Source: Candidatus Aquidulcis sp.
GTDB taxonomy: Bacteria; Chloroflexota; Anaerolineae; UBA4142
NCBI GenBank assembly: GCA_020723345.1
Contig: DYJA01000002.1
Span: forward strand, 137,544 to 201,543
Direction of reading: 5' to 3'
DNA: 64,000 nt
A model generated the notes under the pieces. The model searched no databases. It worked only from the letters and a program-made list of their open reading frames with translations, and was not told where the DNA came from. Position numbers and translations under genes: made by a program. Shown one piece after another: positions 5,211 through 62,310 of this stretch. Each line of letters opens with the position of its first letter. Within the stretch, counting starts at the first letter, position 1.

Positions 5211-5309
5211 GATAGCAAATAGCAGATAGCGTATGGCGTACGGCAATTGACGACTTGTCATTTGCTACATGCCATTCGCTATACGCGATTTGCTATTTGC
5301 CATACGCCG
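5211..5309. repeat. Long imperfect palindrome built from short motifs (gcaaatagc / gcgtatggc units)
   Basis: Left arm gcaaatagcagatagcgtatggcgtacggcaa; right arm ttgctacatgccattcgctatacgcgatttgctatttgccatacgcc. Followed by an extended -10 TGGTAGAAT (5316-5324). Confidence 0.7.
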
Positions 5310-5340
5310 ATTTTGTGGTAGAATATTTTCAAAGACAATT

Positions 5341-6075
5341 ATGCGCATCCTCATCGTTTCCGATATTCACGCCAACCTCGTCGCTTTCGAAACTGTCTTA
5401 CGCAACGCCGGTGATTTCGACCGCATTTGGTGTTTGGGCGATATTGTCGGCTACGGTCCCGAACCGAACACGTGCGTCGAGAAACTGCGCGCGTTCGATC
5501 CGATCTGTGTGGCCGGCAACCACGATTGGGCAGTTCTCGACAAACTCGATCTGGAAGAATTCAACCCCGACGCGCGCCGCGCCGCGATCTGGACGCGCGA
5601 TCAACTCGACGTGCAAAATCTCGATTGGCTGCATTCGCTGCCCGAACAACTCCCCACTCAAGCCGAAAGATTCACGCTCACGCATGGCAGTCCGCGCTAT
5701 CCGATCTGGGAATACGTTCTGACGCCGGCGGTCGCGCGCATCAATTTCGATTTCTTCGATACACACGTTTGCTTGATTGGACACACGCACGTCCCCGTTC
5801 TCTATCGGTACCATCCCGACGATCATTCTGCGACGGCGGAAACACTGCCCGAAGATATTCCGGTCACGCTCGAATCTGACCGTATGATGATCAACCCCGG
5901 CAGTGTCGGACAGCCGCGCGACGGCGACGCGCGCGCCGCGTTCGCGATCCTCGATTTGGACGAAATGATGCTCACGCATCACCGCGTCGAGTACAATATC
6001 GTCGCGACGCAGTTGAAGATGGCGGAAGCCAAACTGCCGGCGCGTCTGATCACGCGCTTGAGTTACGGCTGGTAG
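5341..6075 (+). CDS. Metallophosphoesterase family protein (YfcE/MJ0936-like)
   Basis: MRILIVSDIHAN, GDIVGYGPEP, GNHD, GHTH motifs. Start moved to 5341 (the ORF-track start 5269 lies in the palindrome). Confidence 0.9.
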   Translation: MRILIVSDIHANLVAFETVLRNAGDFDRIWCLGDIVGYGPEPNTCVEKLRAFDPICVAGNHDWAVLDKLDLEEFNPDARRAAIWTRDQLDVQNLDWLHSLPEQLPTQAERFTLTHGSPRYPIWEYVLTPAVARINFDFFDTHVCLIGHTHVPVLYRYHPDDHSATAETLPEDIPVTLESDRMMINPGSVGQPRDGDARAAFAILDLDEMMLTHHRVEYNIVATQLKMAEAKLPARLITRLSYGW

Positions 6076-6078
6076 ATT

Positions 6079-6106
6079 TTGCTTTTGTCGCCAAGTATGT
6101 TATAAT
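6079..6106 (+). promoter_or_regulatory. Promoter candidate (extended -10)
   Basis: TTGCTT, 16-nt spacer, TGTTATAAT (6098-6106), upstream of the PhzF-like gene. Confidence 0.4.
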
Positions 6107-6284
6107 CCCGGTCAAGATGAACACTCGAAATGTTCTGGCTTGGCAAAAGTTGCACCATCACGCGCATCGTCATCACGCTGCGCCATTTTGCCGCGCCAGG
6201 GGCTAGTCGCGGTCTGTTCGATCTATGATTCTGGCGTGGCGTTGTCCACGCCGTTTTTATTTTTGTGGAGGTGTTTGTCGCGCG

Positions 6285-7098: not shown

Positions 7099-8412
7099 AT
7101 GTCACCGAAAATTCAACCGCGCGTGCCGCGCGGAATGCGCGACATTCTGCCGCAAAAAATGCTCCAACGCCAGTACGTCATCGGACAAGTCGAAAAAGTG
7201 TTTCAGCGTTTCGGCTTTGAGCCGCTGCAAACGCCGGTGCTCGAACTGCGCGAGATGTTGATGGGCAAGTACGGCGAAGACGCCGAAAAATTGATCTACG
7301 ACGCGAAACATCGCGAAGGCAAAGAGGATTTGTCGCTGCGCTACGATTTGACAGTGCCGCTGACGCGCGTCGTCGCGATGTATCCCGAACTCGTCAAGCC
7401 GTTCAAGCGGTACCAGATCGCGCCGGTCTGGCGCGCCGAGCGTCCGCAAAAAGGGCGCTATCGCGAATTCTATCAATGCGACGCAGACATCGTCGGCAGC
7501 AAATCCATGCTCGCGGACGCGGAAATCGTGACGATGATCTACACGGTCTTGGAAGCGCTCGGTTTCAAATCGTTCGTCACCAAAATCAACAATCGCAAAA
7601 TCTTGACCGGCATCGGGCAGTACGCCGGAGCGCCGAACGAAATGCTCGGCGGTTTGTATCGCTCGATTGACAAGTTGGAAAAGATCGGCGTGGACGGCGT
7701 GCGCGAAGAAATGGCAAAGGCGCAGATTCCCACGAAGGTGATCGACCGAATCATGGAACTGGTCGCGTTGCCGCCGAACGCGTTCGGGGAACTCCGGGAA
7801 CTGATGGGAAATGTTCCCGCGGCGATGGATGGGCTGGACGAACTCGAACAACTCGCGACGTTCCTCGGCGATTCGGGTGTGCCGCGCGCGAACTATCAAT
7901 TCGATTTTTCGATGGTGCGCGGTCTCGCGTACTACACGGGTCCGATTTACGAGACCGTCGTCACCGAACCGAAAATCGGCTCGCTGACCGGCGGCGGGCG
8001 GTACGACGAACTGATCGGCTTGTTCATGAATCAATCCATTCCGACGACCGGCACGTCGTTCGGCATCGAGCGCATCATCGACGTGATGGACGAACTCGCG
8101 ATGTATCCGGCGAGCATCGGCAAGACGGTCACGCAGGTTTTCGTTACCGTCTTCAATCGCGATTTGATCGGCGTGTCGATGCGCGTCGCGAACGCGCTGC
8201 GCGCGGCAGGCATCAACGCCGAACTCGCGCTCGACGCGGATGGACTGGGCAAGCAGTTGAAATACGCGGCGGCAAAGGCGATTCCGTTCGCGCTCATCAT
8301 CGGTCCCGACGAAAACGCCGCGCAACAAGCGACGCTGCGCGATTTGGCGAGCGGCGAGCAGACGTTGATCGCGCAGAGTGAGTTGGCTAATGCGTGGAAA
8401 CGTGGTACGTGA
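7099..8412 (+). CDS. hisS: Histidine--tRNA ligase
   Basis: 437 aa. PRGMRDILP, RYDLTVPLTR, FKRYQIAPVWRAERPQKGRYREFYQCD, GGGRYDEL class-II HisRS motifs. Confidence 0.95.
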   Translation: MSPKIQPRVPRGMRDILPQKMLQRQYVIGQVEKVFQRFGFEPLQTPVLELREMLMGKYGEDAEKLIYDAKHREGKEDLSLRYDLTVPLTRVVAMYPELVKPFKRYQIAPVWRAERPQKGRYREFYQCDADIVGSKSMLADAEIVTMIYTVLEALGFKSFVTKINNRKILTGIGQYAGAPNEMLGGLYRSIDKLEKIGVDGVREEMAKAQIPTKVIDRIMELVALPPNAFGELRELMGNVPAAMDGLDELEQLATFLGDSGVPRANYQFDFSMVRGLAYYTGPIYETVVTEPKIGSLTGGGRYDELIGLFMNQSIPTTGTSFGIERIIDVMDELAMYPASIGKTVTQVFVTVFNRDLIGVSMRVANALRAAGINAELALDADGLGKQLKYAAAKAIPFALIIGPDENAAQQATLRDLASGEQTLIAQSELANAWKRGT

Positions 8413-8513
8413 TACGTGATGCGTGAGCGGAGTTTTTTGAATTACGAATTTCGAATTGCGAATTTTGAATTTGCGTAACCGCGCCATTCGTGCTAAAATA
8501 GCGTTTGTAAGAT

Positions 8514-8586: not shown

Positions 8587-8593
8587 CTTTTCC

Positions 8594-8666
8594 AAAGGAT
8601 GAAGGCAGAAGGATGAAGGATGATCTTGATTATTTCATCCTTCCGCCTTCTGACTTCTGCCTTCGG
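8594..8666. repeat. Hairpin of tandem aaggatga/aggcaga motifs between the two tRNAs
   Basis: aaaggatgaaggcagaaggatgaaggatga ... ttcatccttccgccttctgacttctgccttcgg; the arms are reverse complements of each other. Confidence 0.75.
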
Positions 8667-9368: not shown

Positions 9369-10640
9369 GTGAGCAGTATATACGACTCGTTCAAGGACAT
9401 TATTGATCGAGACGCGGAGATTGCGAAGAGGAACCAAGAAGTCATTGAATTGCAGGCGAGACAGAGTAGTTTGCAATCCGCTTGCGATCAATCCAAGCAA
9501 ACGTTGGAAAGCCTCCAACGCGATGTTGCTCTCGCTGAAGAAAACCTTGAGCTACAATCCTTTGGTCTATACAAACCCCACTTTGATTTCGCGACTTCCG
9601 AATCTTTCAAAGTACGCCTGCAACGCGCTTGTGATGATCAGAAACGTATGGTCGCTGACGGGCGCGCCGTAATTTCTGAGAGACCATGGACGGTAAATGG
9701 TAGCGAACGCGAAGGCGAGCGGATGACGAAGCAATATGCGAAGCTCATGTTGCGCGCTTTTAATGGGGAATGCGACGCAACTGTTCTTAAAGTTCGTTGG
9801 AACAATGTCGTTGCAATGGAGGAGCGGATACGCAGAGCCTTTGAAGCCATCAACAAGTTAGGCACGACCTACTTTATCCGTATAACAAACGAATACCTCA
9901 ATTTGAAATTAGACGAACTACGACTGACGCACGAATATCAAGAGAAGTTATATCAAGAGAAGGAAGAGCAACGACGCATTCAAGAACAGATGCGGGAAGA
10001 AGAAAAGACACGGCAGGAAATTGAACGCGCTCAGCAGGAAGCAGAGGATGAAGAGCGACGTTACGCGAATGCATTGGAGCGAGCTCGCGCCGAACTGGAG
10101 AAAGCCAAAGGTGCGGAGGTCGGAAAGTTAAACGAAAAAATCACCCAATTGGAAGAACAGCTGAGATCTGCCCAGGAGATGAAGCAACGGGCAATCTCAA
10201 GAGCGCAATTGACCAAATCGGGACATGTCTACGTAATTTCTAACATCGGCTCCTTTGGCGAAAATGTCTTCAAGATTGGAATGACGCGCAGACTAGAGCC
10301 GATTGATCGGGTTCGAGAATTGGGCGACGCTTCAGTTCCATTTCCATTTGATGTTCATGCGATGATTTATTCCGAAGACGCTCCTGCACTCGAAAGTGAT
10401 TTGCAAAGTCACTTCAGGCAGTACCAAGTGAACTTGGTCAACGACCGTAAAGAGTTCTTCAATATCAATCTTGCGGAAATTGAAGAATATGCGCGCAAGC
10501 ATAGACTCAAGGTTACGATCACCCAGCTTGCCGAAGCTAAGGAGTACCGAGAATCAATGGCATTGAAGATACAAAATAAAACCAATGTTATGCCGCAACC
10601 GGCCTCGTCGTTTCAAAGTGCCATCCAATCGGTAAATTGA
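9369..10640 (+). CDS. DUF4041-type N-terminal region, coiled coil, and T5orf172/MUG113 (GIY-YIG-like) C-terminal domain protein
   Basis: LQSFGLYKPHFDF, KLMLRAFNGECD, EEQRRIQEQMREEEKTRQEIERAQQEAEDEE coiled coil, then GHVYVISNIGSFGENVFKIGMTRRLEPIDRVRELGDASVPFPFDVHAMIYSEDAPALE...NDRKEFF. GTG start. Region visibly AT-richer than its flanks. Confidence 0.8.
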   Translation: MSSIYDSFKDIIDRDAEIAKRNQEVIELQARQSSLQSACDQSKQTLESLQRDVALAEENLELQSFGLYKPHFDFATSESFKVRLQRACDDQKRMVADGRAVISERPWTVNGSEREGERMTKQYAKLMLRAFNGECDATVLKVRWNNVVAMEERIRRAFEAINKLGTTYFIRITNEYLNLKLDELRLTHEYQEKLYQEKEEQRRIQEQMREEEKTRQEIERAQQEAEDEERRYANALERARAELEKAKGAEVGKLNEKITQLEEQLRSAQEMKQRAISRAQLTKSGHVYVISNIGSFGENVFKIGMTRRLEPIDRVRELGDASVPFPFDVHAMIYSEDAPALESDLQSHFRQYQVNLVNDRKEFFNINLAEIEEYARKHRLKVTITQLAEAKEYRESMALKIQNKTNVMPQPASSFQSAIQSVN

Positions 10641-14215: not shown

Positions 14216-14286
14216 TTGGTCAATCGGTCAACCAGTCACCGATTGCCTGATCGCCCAATTGCCTGATCGCCTGATCGCCCGATTGA
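14214..14286. repeat. Tandem-motif element (caatcgg / gattgcctgatcgcc units)
   Basis: gattggtcaatcggtcaaccagtcaccgattgcctgatcgcccaattgcctgatcgcctgatcgcccgattg. Same motif family as 16705-16779 and 54452-54547. Confidence 0.7.
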
Positions 14287-14302: not shown

Positions 14303-14902
14303 ATGACATTTGCCGAAAAACCACTCCAAACTCTCCTCGACGAACTCGCGTCCGCCGAGCCCGCGCCGGGCGGCGGGACCGTCGCGGCGTTGAGCGGCGC
14401 GCTCGGCGCGGCGCTCGTCGCGATGGTGTGCCGCTTGACGATTGGCAAGAAAGGGTACGAGGCGGTCAGCGCGGAAATGGAAACGATCCTGCCGCGCGCC
14501 GACGCGCTGCGCCGCGAACTCGCCGACTCGATGCAAGCCGACACCGATGCGTACACGCGCGTGATGGCGGCGTATGGGTTACCCAAGACGAGCGATGCCG
14601 AAAAAGCCGCGCGCGCCCGCGCGATTCAAGCCGCGCTCCAACATGCGTCTGACGTGCCGCTGCGTGTCGCGGACGCGTGCGCGCAAGTACTCGACCTCGC
14701 GCGCGTCGTCGCGGCAAAAGGGAACAAGAACGCGGCGAGCGATGGCGGCGTCGGCGCGCTGATGGCGGAGGCGGGCTTGCGCGGCGCGGCGTTCAACGTC
14801 ATGATCAATTTGAGCAGCATCAAGGACGAAGCATTTGTCCAAGATCGCCGCGCGCGCGTCGCGCGATTACTCGCTGACGTCGAAAGGGATAAGAAGGGAT
14901 AA
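14303..14902 (+). CDS. Cyclodeaminase/cyclohydrolase family protein (FTCD C-terminal-like, methenyl-THF cyclohydrolase-like)
   Basis: LLDELASAEPAPGGGTVAALSGALGAALVAMVCRLTIGKK. The last codons (DKKG-stop) lie inside the following repeat. Confidence 0.85.
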   Translation: MTFAEKPLQTLLDELASAEPAPGGGTVAALSGALGAALVAMVCRLTIGKKGYEAVSAEMETILPRADALRRELADSMQADTDAYTRVMAAYGLPKTSDAEKAARARAIQAALQHASDVPLRVADACAQVLDLARVVAAKGNKNAASDGGVGALMAEAGLRGAAFNVMINLSSIKDEAFVQDRRARVARLLADVERDKKG

Positions 14903-15007
14903 GAGGGGATAAGAAGGCAGAAGAAGGCGGGGAAGGCGGAAAAGGCGCGCGCCCTCCCAGCCCTCTTCGCCCTCTACGTCCTCTTATGCCCCCTCATCTC
15001 TTCTAAG
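14884..15007. repeat. Long imperfect palindrome of gataagaagg/gcagaaggc units
   Basis: gggataagaagggataagaggggataagaaggcagaagaaggcggggaaggcgg ... ccctcttcgccctctacgtcctcttatgccccctcatctcttc. Confidence 0.8.
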
Positions 15008-15012
15008 AAGTT

Positions 15013-16707: not shown

Positions 16708-16779
16708 GCAATCAGTCAATCGGGCAATCGGTAACTCGTTGACCGATCCCGGATTGACCGATCGCCTGATCGCCTGATG
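16705..16779. repeat. Tandem-motif element (caatcgg / gaccgatcgcctgat units)
   Basis: Starts GTAGGCAATCAG, with its TAG serving as the fhs stop codon. Arms caatcagtcaatcgggcaatcgg / ccgattgaccgatcgcctgatcgcctgat. Confidence 0.7.
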
Positions 16780-52850: not shown

Positions 52851-53028
52851 CTGTGAGGTGTGTGCTCCATTCCAAGACCTTATCGCGCTTGCACGCACGC
52901 GCATCACGCGCGAGTTCATGTGCGAAGAGCGGCAAAGGTATTTGCACGAAAATATTGTCTGCTCAACGCCAACGCCAATCCTAACTCAAACTCCAGAGCC
53001 CCCGCAGACAATAACGCCTGGTAGGTGA
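51946..53028 (+). CDS. WD40-repeat protein (7 repeats), probably the detached C-terminal part of the preceding gene
   Basis: The first ATG lies inside the hairpin. The recognisable sequence starts DLRGHTSKIRSIVFSPDGK. No signal peptide or TM. An alternative start is ATG 51991. Confidence 0.7.
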   Translation: MFISVQKIWLRLCCAMDLRGHTSKIRSIVFSPDGKSLVTASEDNTARVWEASTGASILVLSGHKGFLRSVAYSPEGKFIVTASGDSIARVWEASTGKSILELRGHTKDVRSAAYSPDGKFIVTASIDGSARVWEAGTGKGIMELRGHGIHSVLNAAFSPDGKRIVTAGWDGIAKVWETSTGKSTIELRGHTLGLYSATFSPDGKLIVTTSVDGTVRIWEASTGKSVIELHAHAGDSHSAAFSPDGKYVVTVGLDGNARVWETSTGKHIVEISEATAIFSAVFHPEGKLIATASSDGVARIYVCEVCAPFQDLIALARTRITREFMCEERQRYLHENIVCSTPTPILTQTPEPPQTITPGR

Positions 53029-53032
53029 TCTT

Positions 53033-53980
53033 ATGCCCGAACCACCTTATGGTATCATTGTCAACCAATTGAAACAAGGGAACGTCATTCCCTTCCTCGG
53101 CGCGGGCGCGTCGTTGAGCGGACGTCCGGTGGACGCGAAATGGAACGACAAGACCGCCGCGTTTCTTCCAACCGGCAGAGAACTCGCGCACCAACTCGCC
53201 GAGGATTCCAGTTTGCCGTCCACAGAATCGTACGACCGCGATGATCTCTCCAAAGTTTCGTCGTACTACGCCGAAGTCGCCGCAAACCGCGCCGACTTGA
53301 TCGGCTGTCTGCATCAAACGCTTGACCGCGATTATCAGATCGGCGCGATCCACCGTTTTCTCGCAGACGCCGACGTGCCGCTTCTCATCGTCACGACGAA
53401 TTACGATGATCTGATCGAGCGCGCGTTTCAGGCAAAGGGTAAACCGTACCATCTCGTCGCGTATCCCACCGATCACAAAGAACTCGCGGCAGCGGTATTG
53501 TGGTGGAAGCCCGGCGCAGCCGACCCCGAAGCGCACGCGCCCAAATCGCTTCCGCTCTCGCTCAGCGATACGACCATCATCTACAAGATGCACGGCACGG
53601 TGGATCGGCAAGCGAACAAGTGGGATTCGTACGTCATCACCGAAGAAGACTATGTGGACTTTCTCGCGCGGATGACGGGGCAGACCGCGATCCCCGCGCG
53701 CTTGATGCTCGAATTTCGCAAGCGGCGTTTTCTCTTTCTCGGCTACGGTCTGCGCGATTGGAACCTGCGCGTGATGCTGCGTCACCTCAAAAGCGCACTC
53801 GCCACAACCGAAACGACCGCGCCGCTAACCGATGCGGGCGAGGATTTGCGCTCGTGGGCGATCCAGCGCAATCCATCGGAGTTGGAACGCGCGCTGTGGC
53901 TTGCGCGCAAGGTGAACATTTACGATCTGGAGATTGACGCGTTCGTCGGCAAGTTGCGCGAGAAGATGGGCATTGCGTAG
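53033..53980 (+). CDS. SIR2-like (SIR2_2-type) protein, paralogue of 43997-44878
   Basis: VIPFLGAGASLSG, LLIVTTNYDDLIERAF, IIYKMHGT, YVITEEDYVDFL, RFLFLGYGLRDWNLRVMLRHL. Starts 4 nt after the WD40 stop. Confidence 0.85.
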   Translation: MPEPPYGIIVNQLKQGNVIPFLGAGASLSGRPVDAKWNDKTAAFLPTGRELAHQLAEDSSLPSTESYDRDDLSKVSSYYAEVAANRADLIGCLHQTLDRDYQIGAIHRFLADADVPLLIVTTNYDDLIERAFQAKGKPYHLVAYPTDHKELAAAVLWWKPGAADPEAHAPKSLPLSLSDTTIIYKMHGTVDRQANKWDSYVITEEDYVDFLARMTGQTAIPARLMLEFRKRRFLFLGYGLRDWNLRVMLRHLKSALATTETTAPLTDAGEDLRSWAIQRNPSELERALWLARKVNIYDLEIDAFVGKLREKMGIA

Positions 53981-54079
53981 GGGCGAAGCATTTGCCAAAT
54001 CGTGATCGCATGCCAAGACGATTGGCATAATGCAAACAACTTGCCGACAAACCGTCTTGCGCAAATGCTTCGCCCTTAC
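53978..54079. repeat. GTAGGGGCGAAGCATTTGCC...GCAAATGCTTCGCCCTTAC element
   Basis: Same termini and same orientation as 48945-49084. Its TAG is the stop codon of the SIR2-like gene. Confidence 0.8.
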
Positions 54080-54096
54080 GCGGCACGGGGCAGCGT

Positions 54097-54125
54097 TTGA
54101 CCAATCCCCCAACCTGTGCTATAAA
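54097..54125 (+). promoter_or_regulatory. Promoter candidate for the aspS leader
   Basis: TTGACC, 17-nt spacer, TATAAA. Confidence 0.5.
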
Positions 54126-54131
54126 CCACGC

Positions 54132-54452
54132 AACGCAGTGACGGAGAAACGTAGCGCTTGACGAGATTCCAGAGAGCCGTACAATTCTGAAAAGCCGGCA
54201 TCCACGCAAGCGTGATGAACATCTCCCGAGCGTTTCGGTCCGCTCCCGTTATCGAGCGTCGAGGCGACAACCCGCCGAATGTAATTCGGCGTCTCAAAAT
54301 CTGAAAATCGGCTAGAAGCCGATTGCGCGCCAACCCGATTGATCGGGGTTCCACCTTTTGAGACGGACGATTGCATCGTCCGTTGTCGCGCAGAAAGGTG
54401 GCACACGAGTCCCCCCTCGTCCTTTCATCGGACGCGGGGGAATTTTATTTCA
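54132..54452 (+). promoter_or_regulatory. Probable T-box leader (tRNA-sensing riboswitch) of aspS
   Basis: AGAGAG bulge-like motif near the 5' end and several stem-loops. T-box-like gaaaGGTGGCACacgag (54394-54410), where gaaa/tttc and acgag/ctcgt can form an antiterminator with a UGGC-containing bulge. Competing terminator tcccccctcgtcc-tttcatc-ggacgcggggga followed by attttattt. Specifier codon not identified. Confidence 0.5.
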
Positions 54453-54547
54453 GGCGATCAGGCGACCACGTAATCCGGCGATCAGGCAATCGGGCGATCG
54501 GCAACCGATTGACCGATTGCCTGATTGACCGATCCCTGATTGCCTGC
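54452..54547. repeat. Tandem-motif palindrome (caggcgatc / gattgcctg units) between the leader terminator and the aspS start
   Basis: caggcgatcaggcgaccacgtaatccggcgatcaggcaatcgggcgatcggcaa / ccgattgaccgattgcctgattgaccgatccctgattgcctg. Confidence 0.75.
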
Positions 54548-54560
54548 CGAAGGAGCCACT

Positions 54561-55862
54561 ATGGAACGAATTCGCACAACGCAATTGCGCGAACACATCG
54601 GTCAGCGCGTCATTTTGCGCGGCTGGATGCACAACCTGCGCGCGCTCGGCAAGATCAGTTTCATTCTCGTGCGCGACGGCTACGGCATCGCGCAAGCGGT
54701 TACCCAAGACGAAAACGTGCTTGCCGCGCTCCACGGCGCGCACGACGAAAGCGTCATCGAACTCGAAGGCGCGGTCGTCGCGGAAGCGCAAGCGCCGGGC
54801 GGCGTCGAATTGCGCGACATCGCGGTGCGCGTCATCGCGCCGGTCACCGACACGCCCCCGTTTCCGCTCAACAAGCCGACCGTCAACGCGACGCTCGACG
54901 TTTTTCTCGATCATTCGACGGTCGCGCTGCGTCATCCGCGCAAGCGCGCGCTGCTGCGACTTTCCGCCGGGATCATGTCGGCGTTTCGCGAATTTCTCAA
55001 CGGCGACGGATTCACCGAAATCCAATCGCCCAAACTTGTCGCGTCGGCGACCGAAAGCGGCGCGAATGTGTTCGCGGTCGATTACTTTGGCAAAAAGGCG
55101 TTTCTCGCGCAGTCGCCGCAGTTCTACAAGCAAATTATGGTCGGCGTGTTCGAGCGCGTGTACGAAGTCGGTCCCGTCTTCCGCGCCGAGCCGCACGACA
55201 CGACGCGCCACGTCAACGAGTACGTCAGTCTCGACGTCGAATTTGGTTTCATCGAGAATCACTTTACGGTGATGGCGTTGCTCACGCGCTTGATTCGACA
55301 CATTCTCGCGCGGCTCGCGGAACAAAACGCGGCAGCGTTGCAATTGCTCGATGTGAAAATGCCGAACGCGCCTGAAACTTTCCCACACATTCACTTTCGC
55401 GACGCGCAGCAACTCATCTTTGAGAAATTCGGCGAGGATTGCCGCGGCGAACCCGATCTCGCGCCGCAGCACGAACGCTGGCTCGGACAGTGGGCGCGTG
55501 AAACGCACAACTCCGATTTTCTATTCGTGCCCGGCTATCCGATGAGCAAGCGACCGTTTTACACGCACCCCGATCCCGCGGATCCAAAATATTCGTACTC
55601 GTTCGACTTGCTGTTTCGCGGCACCGAACTTGTGACCGGCGGACAGCGGCTGCATCGGTACGAAGATTATCTTGCCGCGCTCGCGCGCGCGAAATATCCG
55701 GTCGAGCCGTTCGCGTACTATCTCGACGCGATGAAGTACGGGATGCCGCCGCACGGCGGCTTCGCCGTCGGCTTGGAACGTTTTGTGATGCAGTTGTGCG
55801 GCTTGTCGAATTTGCGCGAAGCGACCTTGTTCCCGCGCGATACGCACCGCCTCACCCCATAA
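54561..55862 (+). CDS. aspS: Aspartate--tRNA ligase, short (archaeal/type-2) form
   Basis: About 433 aa. GWMHNLRALGKISFILVRDGYG, FLAQSPQFYKQ, VGPVFRAEPHDTTRHVNEY, GGQRLHRYE, GMPPHGGFAVGLERF. AAGGAG RBS before MERIRT. Confidence 0.95.
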   Translation: MERIRTTQLREHIGQRVILRGWMHNLRALGKISFILVRDGYGIAQAVTQDENVLAALHGAHDESVIELEGAVVAEAQAPGGVELRDIAVRVIAPVTDTPPFPLNKPTVNATLDVFLDHSTVALRHPRKRALLRLSAGIMSAFREFLNGDGFTEIQSPKLVASATESGANVFAVDYFGKKAFLAQSPQFYKQIMVGVFERVYEVGPVFRAEPHDTTRHVNEYVSLDVEFGFIENHFTVMALLTRLIRHILARLAEQNAAALQLLDVKMPNAPETFPHIHFRDAQQLIFEKFGEDCRGEPDLAPQHERWLGQWARETHNSDFLFVPGYPMSKRPFYTHPDPADPKYSYSFDLLFRGTELVTGGQRLHRYEDYLAALARAKYPVEPFAYYLDAMKYGMPPHGGFAVGLERFVMQLCGLSNLREATLFPRDTHRLTP

Positions 55863-55895
55863 AAAATTAGGAGCGAGCAACTGCTCGCTCCTTTC

Positions 55896-57110: not shown

Positions 57111-57151
57111 AGATCACTCCTTGAAGACAAGTCAAATAGAAATCGGATAAT

Positions 57152-57218
57152 GGGACACCGATGTACACAGATAAACACAGATAGAAAAATCAGTGTGCAT
57201 CAGTGTTTATCCGTGTCC
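57152..57218. repeat. Hairpin of cacagat units (second copy)
   Basis: gggacaccgatgtacacagataaacacagatag-aaaaa-tcagtgtgcatcagtgtttatccgtgtcc. Contains the stop and last 3 codons of gene 57207-57770. Confidence 0.85.
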
Positions 57219-57770
57219 TCGATTGGATTCCAACGTGATCACATAAACGCACGCTTGCCCCTGCGTCTTGAGACACTTGCCCAACGCCGGGTTGATCTCG
57301 TACTGCGCGCTGAACGCGTCGAACCAACCGGTCACGCGCGCGAAAATGCCGCACTCGTACCGCCCCGCGATGCCCCCGCGCGCCGCGTTGTCGAAGGCAA
57401 AGCAGCGGCGCACGCGCACCTGATACGCGCGATCGCTGATCTTGAATACGTCATAGTCGAGCAGATCGGGACCGAGCAAGGCGATGAATAATTCTTGCGC
57501 CAGAAGAAAATCGTCGAGCGTGCGCGGCGACAGTTTCAACGCGCGTGCGACGCGTTGCGCTTCCACCTTGCCGACCTCATGCGCGGCAATCTGATTGAGC
57601 CGATTCGCTTCCGCGATGCCGTGCGCGCTCGCGACCGCCATAAACCACCGCGCGTCGTGCGACATCCAGCATTTGATCAAAAGGGTCGCGCGCTCCGCCG
57701 CGCCGAAACGCGCGAGCAGTTCACCCGCCTTTTCCCTCAGTCGAGGTTGCAAATTCTCCGGCGCGTTCAT
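57207..57770 (-). CDS. Hypothetical protein (187 aa)
   Basis: LIKCWMSHDARWFMAVASAHG. Conserved-looking, but the family is not confidently recalled. Confidence 0.6.
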   Translation of the reverse strand: MNAPENLQPRLREKAGELLARFGAAERATLLIKCWMSHDARWFMAVASAHGIAEANRLNQIAAHEVGKVEAQRVARALKLSPRTLDDFLLAQELFIALLGPDLLDYDVFKISDRAYQVRVRRCFAFDNAARGGIAGRYECGIFARVTGWFDAFSAQYEINPALGKCLKTQGQACVYVITLESNRGHG

Positions 57771-57797
57771 CGCTCTTCATCCTTCCGCCTTCATCCT

Positions 57798-58586
57798 TTA
57801 TCCGAGCCAGCGTTTGCGGCGTTTGTAATGCTTGACCTCGCGATAACTCTTGCGTTCGCCGAGTTGGGTCAAGCCAAGATAGAATTCTTTGATGTCTTCA
57901 TTGTCGCGCAATTTCTGGGCGGGACCTTCCAGGACGATCCGCCCGGTTTCCATCACGTAGCCGTGATCGGCGATGGCGAGCGCGGCTTGCGCGATCTGTT
58001 CGACCAGGAGGATCGCGGTTTTTTCGCGCTGATTGATTTGTCGAATGACGTGGAAAATCTCGGCGACGAGGAGCGGCGCGAGACCCAGCGACGGCTCGTC
58101 GAGCAGCATCAATTTGGGATGCGCCATCAGCGCGCGCCCGATCACGACCATCTGCTGTTCGCCGCCGGAGAGATAACCGCTGACGCGTCCGCGCAAATCG
58201 CGCAGACGCGGAAAATATTGGTACACCATATCCAGATCGGCGCGGAGGTTGCCATTGCGCGCGAGCGCGCCGACGACGAGGTTCTCTTCGACGGTGAGAT
58301 GCGCGAAGAGGCGGCGCCCTTCGAGCACTTGGACGATCCCGCGCCGGACGACGGCTTCGGGACCCAAGCGATCGAGCCGCGCGCCGTCGAATTCAATCGA
58401 GCCGCGCGTGACCTGACCCAGTTCGGTGCGCAGCAGACCGGAGATCGCTTTGAGCGCGGTCGTTTTGCCCGCGCCGTTCGCGCCGAGCAGCGCGACGATT
58501 TGCCCATCGCCGACCTCGAGTGAGACGCCGCGCAGCACCAGGATCACATCGCTATAAACGACTTCGATGTTGTTGAGTTTGAGCAT
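57798..58586 (-). CDS. livF: Branched-chain amino acid-type ABC transporter ATP-binding protein (LivF-like)
   Basis: LLGANGAGKTTALKAISG, LSGGEQQMVVIGRAL, LMLLDEPSLGLAP. Confidence 0.9.
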   Translation of the reverse strand: MLKLNNIEVVYSDVILVLRGVSLEVGDGQIVALLGANGAGKTTALKAISGLLRTELGQVTRGSIEFDGARLDRLGPEAVVRRGIVQVLEGRRLFAHLTVEENLVVGALARNGNLRADLDMVYQYFPRLRDLRGRVSGYLSGGEQQMVVIGRALMAHPKLMLLDEPSLGLAPLLVAEIFHVIRQINQREKTAILLVEQIAQAALAIADHGYVMETGRIVLEGPAQKLRDNEDIKEFYLGLTQLGERKSYREVKHYKRRKRWLG

Positions 58587-58595
58587 GATAAAACC

Positions 58596-58740
58596 CAGAG
58601 GGATTAGAGGGCATAAAAAGGCAAGAGAGGGCGCAGAGGGTAATAAGGCATAGAAGGTAAGGAGGGCTGAGCCCCTCGGTTGCCTTCGGATGCCTTCTAC
58701 GCCTTCTACTCCTTCTGACGCCCTCTATCCCTTCTGCGTC
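58596..58740. repeat. Long imperfect palindrome of agagggn / agaaggn units
   Basis: cagagggattagagggcataaaaaggcaagagagggcgcagagggtaataaggcatagaaggtaaggaggg ... gccttcggatgccttctacgccttctactccttctgacgccctctatcccttctg. Confidence 0.8.
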
Positions 58741-60111
58741 TTACTTGGGTTTCAGATCCGGCGCGGTCATCCAGTCCGTCAGATAGATGAACTTGCCTTT
58801 TTGCACTTGGACGATCCGCGCTTTGCTGGGCGCGCGCTTGTCTTTGCCAAAGTCAAACGACTGGATGCCTTCCATCGGTTTGAGTTCGGGCGTTGCCTGG
58901 ATCGTTTCGTACACGGCAGCGCCGGTCAAGCCCTCAAAGCCGACGCGGTCAATCGTCTTTTCGATGTACTGCTTCATCGCATCCACGAACGTGAACGAGA
59001 GCAGATAACCGACGCTGCGTTCGGCGGGCTTGCGCTGATTCGTGGTGAATTCGCCCTGAATGATCTTGACGCCGGGATGCGTGGTATCGTCCCACCACAG
59101 GTTCGGGAAGACGCCGTAGTATCCTTCGGACGCCGCGCCTGCGAGCGCGAGCATCGAAAGATCGAGACTCCAGTTGCTGCCGGCGATCATGAATTCGTCG
59201 CGTACGCCGAGCGAGACCGCGTCTTTGAGAATTTGCGCGGGCCCGTGCGCGAGCGAGTTGGTGTAGATGACATTCGCGCCGGCTTTTTTCGCCGCGAGAA
59301 TTTGCGTGGTCACGTCCGGCGCGCCGGGCGTAAAGAGTTCTTGCCCGACGATCTTGACACCCTTCTTTTCGGCGTAGGCGCGGGTTTCGGCGGTCAACGC
59401 ATCGCGACCGTACGCGCTGTCCCAGGTGACGACCGCAATCTTGGGGGAATCAAGCGCCTGTCCCTTGGCGGGCTTGACCTTGTCCCAGTTCGGCACGAGC
59501 CAGTCGAGGAACAAACCGAATTGATCGGTGTAGATCGGCACGACCGCGAAGACATAGCCGGGCGGATACGAGCCCTTGGAACTGACGCCCGCGGTGAGGA
59601 CCGGAATCTTGTCCTCGGCGAGGCGGTCTTTCAACGCTTCGGTTTCGCCCGAGCCGTACATTTGCATGATCAGCGGTTTCTTTTCGCGGAAACGATTGTA
59701 CGCCGCGATGGCGAGTTCGACTTTGCTCGCCGTATCCGCCCATTCGACGACGATTTCCGCGCCGCGAATGCCGCCTTTGCCGTTCCAGTATTTCGCGCCG
59801 TCGTTAAAGCCGGACACCAGCGGCGTCGTGATCGCGGCGAGTGGTCCCGTCACATCCCCAAAGTGGTAGAGTGTGATTTTTTCGCCGGGATTCGCTTTGG
59901 TGCGAAGCGCCGGTTTAGGTACGTCCGTCGGTTTGGGCGCGGCGGTGGGTTGCGGCGCGGTGGTGGCGGGCGCGGTGGTGGGTTTGGGCGCGTCGGTCGG
60001 TTTGGGGGCGGGCGTGGGCGGAACCGGCGTGGGCGTCGGTGCGGGCGCGCACGCGGTCAGCGCGATGATAGCCATCATGACCAAGACGATCAGAACGACG
60101 ATCTTTTTCAT
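58741..60111 (-). CDS. ABC transporter substrate-binding lipoprotein (LivK/PBP1 family) with Pro/Thr-rich linker
   Basis: Lipobox LTAC, a PT linker of about 45 aa, and a periplasmic-binding-protein type 1 body. Confidence 0.9.
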   Translation of the reverse strand: MKKIVVLIVLVMMAIIALTACAPAPTPTPVPPTPAPKPTDAPKPTTAPATTAPQPTAAPKPTDVPKPALRTKANPGEKITLYHFGDVTGPLAAITTPLVSGFNDGAKYWNGKGGIRGAEIVVEWADTASKVELAIAAYNRFREKKPLIMQMYGSGETEALKDRLAEDKIPVLTAGVSSKGSYPPGYVFAVVPIYTDQFGLFLDWLVPNWDKVKPAKGQALDSPKIAVVTWDSAYGRDALTAETRAYAEKKGVKIVGQELFTPGAPDVTTQILAAKKAGANVIYTNSLAHGPAQILKDAVSLGVRDEFMIAGSNWSLDLSMLALAGAASEGYYGVFPNLWWDDTTHPGVKIIQGEFTTNQRKPAERSVGYLLSFTFVDAMKQYIEKTIDRVGFEGLTGAAVYETIQATPELKPMEGIQSFDFGKDKRAPSKARIVQVQKGKFIYLTDWMTAPDLKPK

Positions 60112-60204
60112 CTTCTCCTCCTTCTTCGGATTGCAGATTTCAGATTTCGGATTTCAGATTTTATTTTCTCCCCAACATCACCTCCAATCTCTATGCTCCA
60201 ACTA

Positions 60205-61260
60205 CTAATGCGCGAACGGTCTTAGCCGCCACGCGGCTTTGATCAACTCCCAGCGATGCGCGAGTCCGCGCGGTTCGAACACCAGGAATAGCATCAGTGC
60301 GATCCCGAACGTGATCGGTCCCAGCGCGGCAAGGAGTCCCGCTTCCAATTGCGGAAAGAGTTTGCTCAACACCGGCGCGAGTTGCACGGTCACCTCTTCC
60401 AACACGCGCACGAACGCCGCGCCGAGAATCGGACCGAGCGCGCTGCCCATTCCGCCGACGATCACCATGCCCAAATACCACACGGAATTCAGGAGCGAGA
60501 ATTGGTCAGGATTGATCGTGCGCGCGTACATCGCCCAGAGCGCGCCCGCCAGTCCGGCGTACAACGCGGAGAGGAAAAAGGCGCGCAGTTTGTGCGAAAA
60601 CTGCGCGATGCCGAGCACTTCGGCGGCGAGATCGTTATCGCGGATCGCGATCAGCGCGCGCCCCAGGCGCGTGCGCGCGATGTTCTTGGCGGCGATGACG
60701 CAGACGACGACGGTCAGCATGATCGGAAAGTACATCGTCGCTTGCGAGTTGAAGACAATCTCGCCGAGGCGCGGCGGCTGCATCGTCAACCCCGGCATCC
60801 CGCCAAAGATGTCGGTGCGGACGTTGCGAAAAAACCAGGGAATGATCATTTGCGCGGAGAGCGTCGCCATCGCGAGATAGAAACCTTTGATGCGGAGCGA
60901 CGGCAAGCCGAACAACAATCCGACGAGTCCCGCGACCAATCCCGAAATCGGCAGCGCGAGCCAGAAGGAAACTCCGGCTTTGACCAGCACCGCCGCGCTG
61001 TACGCGCCGACTGCCATAAACGCCGCCTGCCCCAGCGAAATCTGTCCGGTGTAGCCGAGCAAGATATTCAATCCGATCACCGCGATAATGCTGATGCCGA
61101 TCAGATTCAAAGTACCGATGACGTGTCCGTCGGCAAAGAATGGCAAAGCAAACAGCCCGATCAGAAACGCAATCGTCATGCCCCATTGTCCGCGATTGCG
61201 AATGATCGCCATGTCGTGCGCGTATGAAGTGTCAAAATCGCCGGCGAGTCGTAGTGCCAT
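60205..61260 (-). CDS. livM: Branched-chain amino acid-type ABC permease (LivM-like)
   Basis: LNILLGYTGQISLGQAAFMAVGAY. Start set at MALRLAGDF (ATG 61260). Confidence 0.9.
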   Translation of the reverse strand: MALRLAGDFDTSYAHDMAIIRNRGQWGMTIAFLIGLFALPFFADGHVIGTLNLIGISIIAVIGLNILLGYTGQISLGQAAFMAVGAYSAAVLVKAGVSFWLALPISGLVAGLVGLLFGLPSLRIKGFYLAMATLSAQMIIPWFFRNVRTDIFGGMPGLTMQPPRLGEIVFNSQATMYFPIMLTVVVCVIAAKNIARTRLGRALIAIRDNDLAAEVLGIAQFSHKLRAFFLSALYAGLAGALWAMYARTINPDQFSLLNSVWYLGMVIVGGMGSALGPILGAAFVRVLEEVTVQLAPVLSKLFPQLEAGLLAALGPITFGIALMLFLVFEPRGLAHRWELIKAAWRLRPFAH

Positions 61261-61261
61261 G

Positions 61262-61330
61262 CAACCCTCGATGCGTGTTGCGTGATGCGTGAAACGTGAA
61301 TATTCACGCATCACGTTTCACGTTTCAGAT
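61262..61330. repeat. Tandem-motif element (gcgtgat / cgtttca units)
   Basis: gcgtgttgcgtgatgcgtgaaacgtgaatattcacgcatcacgtttcacgtttcag. The same units recur at 8410-8430 and inside CDS 22657-22978. Confidence 0.7.
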
Positions 61331-62221
61331 TCTTTCAATCCTTTTCAATCCAAACAATCCATCGGGGCGGAACCACAAGACAATCAGCATAAAGATGTAC
61401 GGCGCGATGTCGCCGAGGTGCAGCGCGCGCAGCGCGGGGTCTTGCGGCAAGCCGCCGACGAGCGACTCGATGACGCCGACGGTCAAGCCGCCGACAATCG
61501 CGCCGGGCACCGATTCCAATCCGCCGAAAAGTACGGCGGGAAATGCTTTGAGCGCGATGATGGACAAGTTGAGTTCGACGCCGCTGATGTTCGCGAGCAG
61601 GACGCCGCACATCGTCGCGACCACACTCGCAATCGCCCACGCCATGCCAAAGATGCGCGGCACGCTCAGTCCAACGCTCTGCGCGAGTTGATGGTCTTCC
61701 GCCGCAGCGCGCATCGCCAGCCCGGCGCGCGTGAATCGGAAAAAGAAAACGAACACGACGAACCCGAGCATCGCCAGCGCGAACGCGAGCGCGAGATTCA
61801 ACTTGAGCCGCACGTCACCCAGGACGAGCGGCTGAATCGGAAAGAGCGCGGGCAGCGAGCGCTGATACGCGCCGAACACGATGATCGCCGCGCCTTGCAG
61901 CGTCTGCGCGAGCGCGAGCGTCATCATCACCGTCGCGAGAATCGGCTGACCGATCAGCGGGCGCAGCGCGACGCGCTCGACCAGCAAGCCGATGAGCGCA
62001 GACACTCCAATCGCGACGGCGAACGCGAGCCACACGTTCCAACCCAGGTTTTCGCTGAACCACCAAGTGGTGAACGCGCCGACCATGAGCAAATGTCCTT
62101 GCGCGAAATTAAAGACGCGCGAGGATTTGTAGATCAGCACCAAGCCAAGCGCGATCAGCGAATAGATGCCGCCGGTCAAGAGACCGGTCGCGAGAAATTG
62201 CGGGAAGAGGTCCCAGTTCAT
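61325..62221 (-). CDS. livH: Branched-chain amino acid-type ABC permease (LivH-like)
   Basis: 298 aa. GLLTGGIYSLIALGLVLIY, FNFAQGHLLMVGAF. Confidence 0.9.
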   Translation of the reverse strand: MNWDLFPQFLATGLLTGGIYSLIALGLVLIYKSSRVFNFAQGHLLMVGAFTTWWFSENLGWNVWLAFAVAIGVSALIGLLVERVALRPLIGQPILATVMMTLALAQTLQGAAIIVFGAYQRSLPALFPIQPLVLGDVRLKLNLALAFALAMLGFVVFVFFFRFTRAGLAMRAAAEDHQLAQSVGLSVPRIFGMAWAIASVVATMCGVLLANISGVELNLSIIALKAFPAVLFGGLESVPGAIVGGLTVGVIESLVGGLPQDPALRALHLGDIAPYIFMLIVLWFRPDGLFGLKRIERI

Positions 62222-62310
62222 TGCTTGTCCCTTGTGTCATTGCGAGCATCCTGAGCGGAGCGGCGTCTGCGCCGCGCAGTCGAAGGATGCGAAGCAATCC
62301 CCGAGTGACG
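62222..62310. repeat. GTCATTGCGAG...GAAGCAATCC element (intergenic copy)
   Basis: gtcattgcgagcatcctgagcggagcggcgtctgcgccgcgcagtcgaaggatgcgaagcaatcccc. Shares termini with the in-CDS copy at 22224. An inverted partial copy lies at about 23212-23250. Confidence 0.75.

Follow-up and report, generated by a model that had tools for sequence, protein, structure and literature searches.

Opposed arrays of 7-10-nt units in the intergenic DNA of a Chloroflexi genome and the association of one family with GxxExxY nuclease genes

What are the long imperfect palindromes that lie between so many genes of Candidatus Aquidulcis sp., a member of the Anaerolineae (Chloroflexota), and how did they come to be there? 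The question was raised by a stretch of 64,000 nt (positions 137,544 to 201,543 of contig DYJA01000002.1, assembly GCA_020723345.1; called the window in the following), and it is by these 64 kb only that the source genome is represented here. A preliminary description of the window had reported elements in which one arm is a run of 7-10-nt near-repeats and the other arm is the run of their complements, and had grouped them in families (a) to (f). Intergenic repeats of the heptamer type have been noted in cyanobacteria for 35 years and later also in Xanthomonas and Beggiatoaceae, and there is no agreed origin or function for them. The window is an extreme, multi-family case from an uncultured Chloroflexi lineage, with one fifth of the intergenic DNA made up of such elements. 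Our analysis indicates that they are repeats at the level of DNA with a rapid turnover, and that one of their families is associated with the gene of a small nuclease, the GxxExxY protein, in other genomes.

Census, anatomy and turnover of the elements

In total we found 24 elements, 15 with two arms and nine with one arm, of which 22 are intergenic and two lie within one gene. The intergenic elements span 1,419 of 7,296 intergenic nt (19%), the intergenic share being 7.3 kb or 11% of the window. Genes were called heuristically from codon usage, four of them being added by hand, so that the position of an element relative to a gene end is good only to within a few codons. An element is present in 19 of the 40 intergenic regions of at least 50 nt, and 16 of these 19 regions are located between genes on the same strand. 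All 21 sites listed in the preliminary description indeed hold near-repeats of 7-10 nt, usually followed by their complements: Tandem Repeats Finder reported arrays with periods of 7-10 and with 2-8 copies at every site, most of them with 64-90% unit matches and not with near-perfect identity, and the inverted arms were recovered independently by an inverted-repeat finder. On re-inspection of the sites, the assignments to families (a) to (f) turned out to be correct, but the families are less separate than proposed. Families (a), (b), (c) and (e) share cores (GAAGG; CAC(G/A)), the element at 48386-48470 has a (c) arm facing a (b) arm, and arrays of family (b) and of a (c)-like type were found nested in metagenomes.

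Ten ungapped hairpins with a score of at least 13 are present in 7.1 kb of intergenic DNA, compared to 0.04 in dinucleotide shuffles (n = 100, with at most one hairpin in any shuffle) and to a single one in 56 kb of coding DNA. A tandem-arm detector, which requires a hairpin whose arms are themselves repeats with a period of 6-11, found 10 structures in the 64-kb window, two to five per 16-22 kb in five relatives (L083-L087), and none in 1.37 Mb from 80 unrelated genomes, the control loci being neighbourhoods of FTHFS genes of 50-60% identity from other phyla. The elements are abundant in one Anaerolineales clade and absent from the unrelated genomes. When folded as RNA, 11 of the 15 two-armed elements reach z-scores of -4 to -10.6 against shuffles; the four at 14216 (-2.1), 16706 (-3.0), 48386 (-2.8) and 40075 (-0.7) fold weakly.

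Twelve elements start between -31 and +9 nt from the upstream stop codon, which is provided by the element itself in several cases, and the elements end 3-20 nt ahead of the next start codon, leaving the ribosome-binding site free. The spacer is therefore essentially the element plus a ribosome-binding site. In agreement with the preliminary description the elements are not CRISPR, as the units abut without spacers, the arms are inverted and no cas domains are among the Pfam hits, and they are not simple microsatellites because their arms are complementary. The Pfam scan comprised 50 of the 53 window genes (the last three, at 61325-64000, were left out), and in its hits there was no transposase, RAYT or Y1 transposase. 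No element reached the gathering threshold in Rfam 15, which in the window was passed by the two tRNAs and the glycine riboswitch only, and a permissive Rfam search of 53950-54620 returned nothing but chance-level miRNA matches overlapping the element.

An element is built from two opposed arrays of 7-10-bp units, and in each unit a conserved core of 4-6 bp is combined with two or three variable positions. Examples are GAAGG+NN(N), CACGAAGG+N, CACAGAT+NAA, GATTT+NN and CGTGA+NN, and there are no GGG runs in the cores (GAAGG, CACGAAGG, CACAGAT, CAATCGG, CGTGAT, GATTT and others). The variable positions are located at the same unit phase in both arms, to an extent reached by none of 5000 phase rotations, and they are neither complementary nor covarying between the arms. 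The two most variable phases account for 64% of the arm-to-arm mismatches, and half of all mismatches are transversions at fixed unit positions. Complementarity of the arms is 0.84 in the native register and 0.79 after a slide by one unit, and on the sense strand G:U mismatches (27) are no more frequent than A:C mismatches (25; P = 0.89; small counts from ungapped alignments). In-phase variable positions which do not pair, tolerance of a shifted register and lack of a G:U excess together argue that the arms are opposed arrays of like units and not the two sides of a maintained RNA helix. The complementarity stems from the shared cores and not from preserved base pairs, and the elements behave as DNA-level repeats rather than as conserved RNAs.

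The preliminary description had also considered functions as terminators or as RNA-stability elements. A role in termination is poorly supported: the elements lie mostly inside runs of same-strand genes, most of them lack a T run (in the 10 nt following 13 of the hairpins the T count is 0-5 with a median of 3 and no clear run), and ordinary GC-stem terminators, several with a T run, are found elsewhere in the window (25619-25651 and 55869-55892 between convergent pairs, 41686-41715, and 30287-30310). Likewise, the G:U and A:C counts and the missing covariation of the variable unit positions lend no support to the RNA fold as a selected structure. The strong RNA stem-loops arising from operon transcription appear to be a by-product, which may nevertheless affect mRNA decay or translation.

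How stable are the elements in evolution? For comparison, six relatives (L082-L087) were used, contigs whose FTHFS is 81-95% identical to the window protein. The junction between FTCD_C and FTHFS measures 110 nt in the window and contains a GAAGG element, while L083 has 5 nt there and L086 has overlapping genes; a hairpin of unrelated type is present in L082, L084 and L085, and the junction in L087 is not comparable because a folD gene is inserted there. Downstream of FTHFS, comparison with L083 reveals a clean block of 76 nt in the window between the TAG stop codon and the AGGTG ribosome-binding site: the junction in L083 is 9 nt long (TAG^AGGTGTACGATG), that in the window reads TAG-(76 nt)-AGGTGACGAATG. 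The junction with the element at 17780-17812 has 58 nt in the window and 3 nt in L083. Between the gene of 226/232 aa and FTCD_C, the site of the element at 14216-14285, six of seven genomes are occupied, with at least four unit types; L083-L087 have other unit families there and L082 has none, its genes overlapping. At this junction L086 and L087 carry homologous copies, which share a loop motif and differ in their units. The repeats alone explain why genes overlap in one species and are separated by spacers of 60-150 nt in a sister species. They therefore have an influence on operon architecture; reading frames are created or truncated by them, and metagenome assemblies break at them.

The two elements inside a coding sequence, which had been recognised as such before, provide a similar picture. 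The gene encodes a YfhO/Polysacc_synt membrane protein, two loops of which contain them in frame: a one-armed TCACGCA array of family e at 22656-22696 in loop 1, and arrays of CAGTCAA (4.7 copies) and ACGTTTC at 22910-22978 in loop 2. Both loops are hypervariable in all four YfhO-like orthologues, and three of these have in-frame arrays or full hairpins of differing families, among them a GTTCAAG hairpin in loop 1 of L083, an AAATTCC hairpin in its loop 2, and a GTGACAAGG hairpin in loop 2 of L087. In addition, the families with CACGAAGG, GATTTNN, GTGACAAGG and CAGTGTT recur across genomes at non-orthologous loci. The differing occupancy of the junctions and the presence of the same families at unrelated places therefore indicate dispersal and rapid turnover, unlike static spacer DNA. 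The preliminary description had named static, vertically inherited spacers as the alternative, and orthologous junctions were found to be empty or filled by another family at 81-95% FTHFS identity.

Family b arrays around GxxExxY nuclease genes

A JGI metagenome pattern search with the family b arm GTCCACGAAGGNCACGRAG yielded at least 120 loci from soils, lakes and sediments with a G+C content of 0.47-0.74, some of which are chance matches inside genes. About 45 of the loci have an inverted partner arm 7-150 nt away, with a median gap of 40 nt. The content of the loops varies and includes nested hairpins of (c)-like CACAGAT/GCGCAGAT units; such nested b/c composites were found in L111, L113, L186 and L208. 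Identical termini and the same design are shared by the two family b elements of the window, L085, the viral contig L089, L225 and the approximately 45 metagenome loci. In contigs with b arrays we counted 40 tandem-arm hairpins in 660 kb, 22 of them from other families. We detected no target-site duplication when the flanks of 19 complete copies of family b were compared: their longest direct match averages 3.3 nt, and 3.36 nt (sd 0.2) in controls.

In six of the 120 listed array-selected loci the arrays bracket an open reading frame (ORF) of 125 aa, which matches TIGR04256 'GxxExxY protein' (5e-40) and PF13366 PDDEXK_3 (1.4e-39). The layout of these cassettes is array-ORF-inverted array or array-ORF-complete hairpin. 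When sampling started from the gene, five query proteins led to four distinct neighbourhoods, and CACGAAG arrays were present on both sides in all four: in an Anaerolineae metagenome-assembled genome (L225), between nuoE-like and nuoF-like genes (L236), between aminotransferase and amidohydrolase genes (L248), and inside a BREX-like locus (L228 and L246, which share one neighbourhood). The cassettes each sit between unrelated housekeeping genes.

Distant homologues with 30-48% identity, from plasmids or megaplasmids of named bacteria, have flanks of several kinds. Inverted arrays of CACAGAGGA accompany the gene in Bacteroides finegoldii, in the order TTCACCACAGAGGACGCAGAGGACACGGAGG-ORF-CTCTGTGACCTCTGTGTCCTCTGTGGTGAA, and inverted CACAGAGA arrays are found on both sides in Bernardetia. 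Treponema has a single inverted CACGGAT unit per side, Gemmatirosa a CGCGGAT tandem-arm hairpin just downstream, and Sphingomonas a CGCGAAGG array upstream only, the units in these five organisms being of a related CAC type. The repeats in Fusobacteria and Prevotella are direct and not inverted, with a length of approximately 50 nt, and Persicobacter shows AATCC-rich runs on both sides with no clear array.

The residues of a catalytic D...E-x-K motif are conserved in the GxxExxY protein. D70 and K82 are invariant in 28 sequences; E80 does not vary in an alignment of 4 sequences, but the conserved columns listed for the 28 sequences do not include it. Structure prediction (pLDDT 92) gave a fold with the greatest similarity to Cas4 and to nucleases of the lambda-exonuclease type, and a sequence search of the PDB found no solved GxxExxY structure. 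Grouped at 50% identity, the family comprises 17,702 clusters (E <=0.001), and PMC3424549 gives its function as unknown, with 'multiple transfers'.

With the exception of GxxExxY, the genes between inverted arrays 250-1500 nt apart in the fetched loci were ordinary neighbours only. Small genes of the window such as the GNAT gene at 48489-48947 were considered as cargo between hairpins, an idea that we rejected; the GNAT enclosed by arrays in L099 shows no relationship to it (BLASTP E = 2.3). In viral contigs the DNA-pattern search revealed true elements in L089 and L099, other matches being mostly one-armed TTTCAGA arrays within DNA of no relation, and a protein search confirmed no GxxExxY relative; blastn against plasmids with a family b element gave no match. 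In the literature we searched there was nothing on such repeats in Chloroflexi, on CACGAAGG, on GxxExxY function or on repeats flanking GxxExxY genes. While heptamer-type intergenic repeats, inverted pairs included, are already known, a multi-family, hairpin-dominated population in Chloroflexi and its association with GxxExxY are new relative to this literature.

Some further observations were made on the cassettes. In L213, a metagenome contig of 1003 nt, a CACGAAG-flanked GxxExxY gene is broken near its 5' end (approximately 160-240, minus strand), and the interrupting sequence is another palindromic element, CCCTCTCTTACCCCCTCTCCCTGTACTCAGGGGGAGGGCTGGGGTGGGGG. L183, L206, L217 and L221 contain blocks of approximately 57 nt, composed of CACGGAGG-type units and a spacer, which are repeated many times in tandem. 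Many GxxExxY genes are known only on contigs of 0.5-2 kb, which fits breakage of assemblies by the flanking repeats.

Origin and spread of the elements

With moderate confidence we propose that the elements are selfish or near-neutral dispersed hairpin repeats, comparable to REPINs or to MITEs (miniature transposable elements with inverted repeats), and that some families are tied to the GxxExxY nuclease. New copies would arise by a copy-and-insert process without target-site duplication. The copies that survive are located where insertion is harmless, i.e. in gaps between stop codon and ribosome-binding site, between tRNAs, after a leader terminator and in in-frame protein loops; the number and order of units per arm would change by replication slippage. 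For family b, and probably for the CAC-core families c and e, the window copies would represent the gene-less form of the repeats which bracket GxxExxY genes across many phyla, and the gene would relate to the repeats by analogy as RAYT does to REPINs or a transposon to MITEs. The unit cores could be recognition sites of the GxxExxY protein. The formation of families would then be due to a constraint on the cores, most simply by protein recognition, which fits units with a core and free positions, no covariation and no G:U bias. The nuclease is a likely partner of family b and plausibly one of c and e, the mechanism of spread being conjectural. More tentatively, and in our view less likely than not, the repeats and the GxxExxY proteins at large could form a previously unrecognised partnership with protein subfamilies matched to the cores CACGAAGG, CACAGAG, CACGGAT, CGCGGAT and others. 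In such a partnership the nuclease, similar to Cas4 and lambda exonuclease, would recognise the 7-10-bp cores on hairpin or cruciform DNA and cause its own cassette to be copied along with many gene-less hairpins.

Bacterial MITEs such as Correia elements, RUP, ERIC and Nezha are dispersed intergenic elements of small size without coding capacity, whose ends are inverted and which are transcribed together with their neighbours. The window elements resemble them in all these features; however, they lack a target-site duplication and a transposase partner, and their ends are tandem units in variable number. Intervening sequences of 23S rRNA form a long stem of flanking inverted repeats with a small ORF of unknown function in the loop, and this stem-with-ORF architecture matches the array-GxxExxY-array cassettes, although no rRNA is involved here and the window copies are gene-less. 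In the REP/REPIN system the RAYT gene is flanked by REP sequences, which it is thought to mobilise (Bertels and Rainey 2011, PMC3116915). Common to REPINs and to our elements are short extragenic, hairpin-forming inverted doublets in intergenic positions without target-site duplication, a putative enzyme gene flanked by inverted repeats, and many gene-less copies per gene copy. Differences concern the arms, which are tandem arrays here and a single 20-40-nt REP with a conserved head there, and the associated gene, which encodes a 125-aa PD-(D/E)XK nuclease instead of a HUH/Y1 transposase and is not present in the window.

Among the heptamer repeats, the cyanobacterial STRR of Calothrix/Nostoc are long simple sequence repeats (SSRs; Rehm et al. 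2015, PMC4692102), and heptamer-type SSRs are also credited to Mrazek et al. 2007, as cited in PMC4692102. The GGGAATC heptamers of Xanthomonas often occur in convergent pairs, with 70-75 opposite-strand cases able to form a stem-loop (PMC4692102). Both resemble our elements in being intergenic tandem units of approximately 7 nt with unknown function, for which slippage was invoked, and in varying in length and sequence at the same junction between close species; moreover, two arrays of the same unit lie close together on opposite strands in Xanthomonas as they do in the 15 two-armed elements. In contrast, the window has many unit families (7, 8, 9 and 10 nt) and not one dominant G-rich unit, its units are imperfect with fixed variable positions and no G-quadruplexes, and the two-armed form predominates. 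Bracketing of a nuclease gene, as seen in other genomes, is not reported for those repeats in the literature searched. Nearly all TAACTGA heptamers of marine Beggiatoaceae are direct repeats with an orientation relative to the downstream gene, and the inverted form occurs once (MacGregor 2015, PMC4679880). They too are abundant intergenic arrays, often broken by related 7-mers and shared across distant phyla, and they adjoin start codons or overlap the ends of upstream genes, but inverted pairs are the rule in the window.

Several points weigh against dispersed repeats with a nuclease partner. No GxxExxY gene was found by phmmer in the window or in the approximately 105 kb of L082-L087 (approximately 170 kb in total), and the link to the nuclease is shown only for family b and CAC-type units and not for families a, d and f. 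This link is an association: the gene could insert preferentially into existing arrays, or the arrays could be its own expression signals. The flanking repeats are direct and not inverted in two plasmid cases and in L228, and the per-locus enrichment is weak alone (six of the 120 listed loci vs none of 80 controls, P = 0.08). The proteins of the gene-first sample are at least 57% identical to the array-linked query and therefore not independent of its subfamily. One GxxExxY subfamily (L228-L235, L246, L247) was found in at least 10 samples at a fixed position in a BREX-like locus, so that some members may be defence components and not mobile genes; the position is between a DNA methyltransferase gene and a SNF2 helicase/PglZ/SIR2 set. 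No insertion intermediate was observed and no polymorphism within the species, L001 (a 7.7-kb Logan contig, SRR13164373, and the only one found to encode an identical FTHFS) being 100% identical to window positions 14648-22396. That six of seven genomes are occupied between the 226/232-aa gene and FTCD_C could reflect one old element with drifting units and not repeated insertion. Finally, the mismatch counts behind the unit anatomy are small, and the ungapped arm alignments are possibly mis-registered.

Could the elements have grown in place instead? Local slippage of a short seed, e.g. the GAAGG of a ribosome-binding site, would produce SSRs that become palindromic by intrastrand template switching, and families would arise from common seeds and a polymerase preference for units of approximately 7 nt, with neither mobility nor an enzyme, in line with proposals made for the cyanobacterial STRR and the GGGAATC repeats of Xanthomonas. 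Periods of 7-10 and the differences in unit number between the orthologous copies in L086/L087 are in line with this, one-armed arrays exist and could be precursors, and arms that are not register-specific are expected from independent slippage. In addition, the family a cores are Shine-Dalgarno-like and adjoin start codons, the junction between the 226/232-aa gene and FTCD_C is occupied in six of seven genomes, and no target-site duplication was found. Heptamers are the commonest long SSR (PMC4692102, PMC4679880), and the 70-75 convergent pairs in Xanthomonas vary in length and sequence at conserved loci (PMC4692102). However, growth in place does not account well for family b, whose termini GTCCACGAAGG...CCTTCGTGGAC, three-unit design and AT-rich flanks recur at unrelated loci in many organisms, or for two (c) copies which agree in idiosyncratic mismatches and in unit order. 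Variation is restricted to two or three unit positions across loci and genomes, while neutral decay would be even; one specific gene family is bracketed by arrays; and the empty or overlapping junctions in several relatives favour gain over drift in place. We regard this explanation as rather unlikely, although no other alternative has a better claim.

According to a second alternative, the elements are RNA stem-loops under selection within operon transcripts. They would terminate or attenuate transcription, or stabilise the upstream message by blocking 3'-5' exonucleases like REP/BIME of E. coli, or be processed by RNase III/E so that neighbouring genes are expressed independently. Their position between same-strand genes in 16 of 19 occupied regions, and in one case between two tRNAs, would suit such a role, and so would the very stable predicted folds (z down to -10.6), the free ribosome-binding site 3-20 nt short of which the elements stop, and the tendency of orthologous junctions to carry some hairpin despite differing sequence. 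Against it stand the sense-strand G:U count, no greater than that of A:C, and the transversions at fixed unit positions, which make up half of the mismatches and show no covariation. Further, in four elements the fold is hardly stronger than in shuffles, and nine have one arm only; most are without a T run while ordinary T-run terminators exist elsewhere in the window; overlapping genes suffice at the same junctions in close relatives; there are in-frame copies within coding sequence; and no Rfam family matches. This is the least supported of the serious options, and we consider it improbable.

The elements could also be arrays of binding sites for host proteins, involved for example in nucleoid organisation or in a global regulon. 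Each core would be one site and each family would have a protein of its own, with GxxExxY as a regulator that binds beside its own gene too and not as a mobilising enzyme. A core with free positions, in phase in both arms and without covariation, is what protein recognition would be expected to produce, and arrays immediately precede start codons, that of the GxxExxY gene among them. Yet presence at a junction varies among close relatives with the same genes, the many cores would demand many proteins, heptamer spacing rotates successive sites to different faces of the helix, copies in coding loops have no regulatory logic, and the conserved catalytic residues of GxxExxY (D70 and K82 in 28 sequences) point to a nuclease and not to a mere binder. 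We therefore think it quite improbable that binding of this kind is what the arrays are for. Ordinary MITEs, i.e. internally deleted insertion sequence copies moved in trans by a DDE transposase with the arms as terminal inverted repeats, would be small, non-coding and dispersed with inverted ends, and a WD40 gene is seemingly split by one copy, whose flanks possibly form a direct repeat of 6-9 bp, but they are very improbable given the absence of target-site duplication in 19 complete family b copies, which counts against DDE-type elements, the variable-number tandem units in place of a fixed terminal sequence, and the absence of a transposase in the window or adjoining the arrays at the six loci, where a 125-aa nuclease is the only associated ORF found. 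Longer versions with the same ends do exist, and they encode this PD-(D/E)XK nuclease and no known transposase.

The proposal of dispersed repeats with a nuclease partner is of interest beyond this genome. Through the link between family b and a small nuclease gene, the spread of such repeats becomes open to experiment. If this association reflects cause and effect, it would amount to a new kind of mobile DNA that is non-autonomous, and a very large protein family of 'function unknown' would gain an annotation; the wider partnership, if true, would explain the heptamer-type repeats of Chloroflexi and perhaps those of Bacteroidota, cyanobacteria and others. If the association is not causal, the data still show the hairpins to be passengers at the DNA level and not conserved regulatory RNAs, which matters for the prediction of terminators and small RNAs in these genomes.

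Individual elements and their surroundings

The first element, at 5212-5307, lies between divergent genes and is two-armed with ATAGCAA/ATAGCGT/ATGGCGT heptamers (fold z-score -6.1, given as z in the following); a related hairpin (ATTGCAA/ATAGC) is present in L084 at 1560. A one-armed ACGTGAT/GCGTGA array of family e (8390-8427) overlaps the stop codon of the histidyl-tRNA synthetase gene and is followed by a one-armed array of GAATTNN heptamers upstream of tRNA-His (8435-8475), to which GATTTNN arrays in L084-L087 are related. As noted before, an element is located between tRNAs: a two-armed one of family a with the GAAGG core (8592-8666; z -6.0) fills the spacer of tRNA-His and tRNA-Arg.

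At 14216-14285 a short CAATCGG hairpin of family d, together with an array of the 8-mer GATCGCCT, begins at the upstream stop codon (z -2.1). The spacer between FTCD_C and FTHFS is occupied at 14884-15002 by a large family a hairpin with the 10-mers GGGATAAGAA/GGCAGAAGAA (z -4.2), which provides the FTCD_C stop codon, and a family d hairpin at 16706-16778 (z -3.0) lies between the FTHFS stop codon and the ribosome-binding site of a HEAT-repeat gene. The tandem array at 17780-17812 is one-armed and made of CTTGTCAC, the complement of GTGACAAG; two-armed GTGACAAGG hairpins were found in L087 (twice) and in L236. Between convergent genes at 19921-19955, 2.2 copies of ACTAGTTGCCCGAATG form a weak repeat with a period of 16 nt, whose membership is doubtful.

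In the glycine-cleavage region, the two-armed element at 38652-38727 consists of ATCCAGT/GTTCAGT/ATTCAGT heptamers and lies in the spacer of SHMT and gcvP subunit 1 (z -8.5); its CAGTGTTCAGT family recurs at 3695 in the Anaerolineae contig L225. The spacer of the two gcvP subunit genes contains an asymmetric family a element (40075-40200; z -0.7), which overlaps the upstream stop codon and combines a long purine-rich arm of approximately eight units with a short complementary arm. Family b is represented by hairpins at 46258-46332, with three units per arm in the order (G)TCCACGAAGG-ACACGAAGG-GACACGAAG ... CTTCGTGGA (z -10.6), and at 48999-49070 (z -8.4). A one-armed family a array of AAGGATG/AAGGACG/AAGGCAG is located between divergent genes at 47919-47950, and the left arm of the chimeric hairpin at 48386-48470 (z -2.8) is of type (c), CACAGATGAA, its right arm being of type (b), CTTCGTG...TTTCGTGGAC.

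The family c hairpin at 51893-51964, with ACACAGATNA and three units per arm, lies between two WD40 reading frames (z -7.7). A near-copy is found at 57150-57220 (z -5.7), and the twins agree in the order of their unit variants and in an A:A or C:C mismatch at the centre of each unit; the two copies, at 51896 and 57152, share an identical core of 32 nt, or approximately 47 nt with one mismatch. The nSTAND1-WD40 gene at 49158-51917 and 51946-53028 is apparently split by the first of them together with an odd linker of approximately 100 nt. According to Pfam and frame analysis, regular WD40 repeats of 42 aa restart directly after the hairpin, and the two frames look like one gene split and truncated by it. 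At most, a target-site duplication is suggested by the flanks AAGATTCTTGG / AAGATTTGG. An AKIL/KIW duplication at the split was rejected because it is in the wrong reading frame, leaving a weak direct repeat of 9/11 nt.

Also the position between a leader terminator and its gene was correctly described. A T-box leader at 54129-54427 (+), with 46.9 bits in a local search compared to a Rfam gathering threshold of 93 (E 3.8e-9), is followed by a 99-nt tandem-arm hairpin and then by a class II aminoacyl-tRNA synthetase gene of the Asp/Asn type. This hairpin, a member of family d at 54450-54548 with the 8-mers GCGATCAG/GCAATCGG, lies between the leader terminator and the synthetase start codon (z -10.4). 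Downstream, a one-armed family a array at 57775-57803 lies directly upstream of a minus-strand start codon, and the largest family a hairpin (58589-58743, approximately 155 nt; z -6.7) makes up the whole spacer between two ABC-transport genes. A one-armed tandem array of GATTTNN, TTGCAGATTTCAGATTTCGGATTTCAGATTT, is present at 60125-60161, with two-armed versions in L084, L085, L086, L087 and L099, and the last element is a family e hairpin of GCGTGAT/ACGTGAA heptamers at 61262-61330 (z -4.3).

The window as a whole has a G+C content of 57% and encodes two tRNAs, one glycine riboswitch and, according to Pfam, housekeeping functions including histidyl-tRNA synthetase, a folate and glycine-cleavage cluster and ABC transporters. 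Several candidate defence genes are interspersed. Adjoining tRNA-Arg, the gene at 9369-10640 (+) matches the PADLOC model PD-Lambda-1 (E 5e-168) and the Pfam domains DUF4041 and T5orf172/MUG113; as it lies in a stretch of lower GC content, it is probably an island inserted at the tRNA. Two separate pairs of STAND NTPase (nSTAND1) and SIR2_2 genes are located at 41787-44878 (-), a 50% GC island, and at 49158-53980 (+). One of the NTPases carries an FGE-sulfatase domain as a fusion, the other WD40 repeats, and both SIR2 proteins match ThsA-like PADLOC models (E 1e-18 to 1e-20). The pairs are candidate anti-phage systems.

The glycine riboswitch (32257-32375, 59 bits) heads an operon whose largest gene, at 32969-36229, encodes a protein of 1086 aa in which SHMT-like and GcvT (aminomethyltransferase) domains are fused; another SHMT gene, standing alone, is found at 37391-38662. 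Finally, two further hairpin families are present. One has GC-rich, non-tandem stems with (A/G)GGGCGAAGCATTTGC...GCAAATGCTTCGCCCCTA, and its three copies (26177-26218, 37259-37330 and 53975-54081) are dispersed over mutually unrelated intergenic regions. The other, with the motifs GTCATTGCGAG / CGAAGCAATC(C/T)C, is found in the window at 62222-62311 and 22246-22283, one copy being inside the YfhO-like gene, and in the relatives L082 (1476-1531), L084 (9900-9990 and 20398-20466) and L085 (4255-4330). It is this GTCATTGCGAG-type family which fills the FTCD_C-to-FTHFS junction in relatives, the place taken by the GAAGG element in the window.

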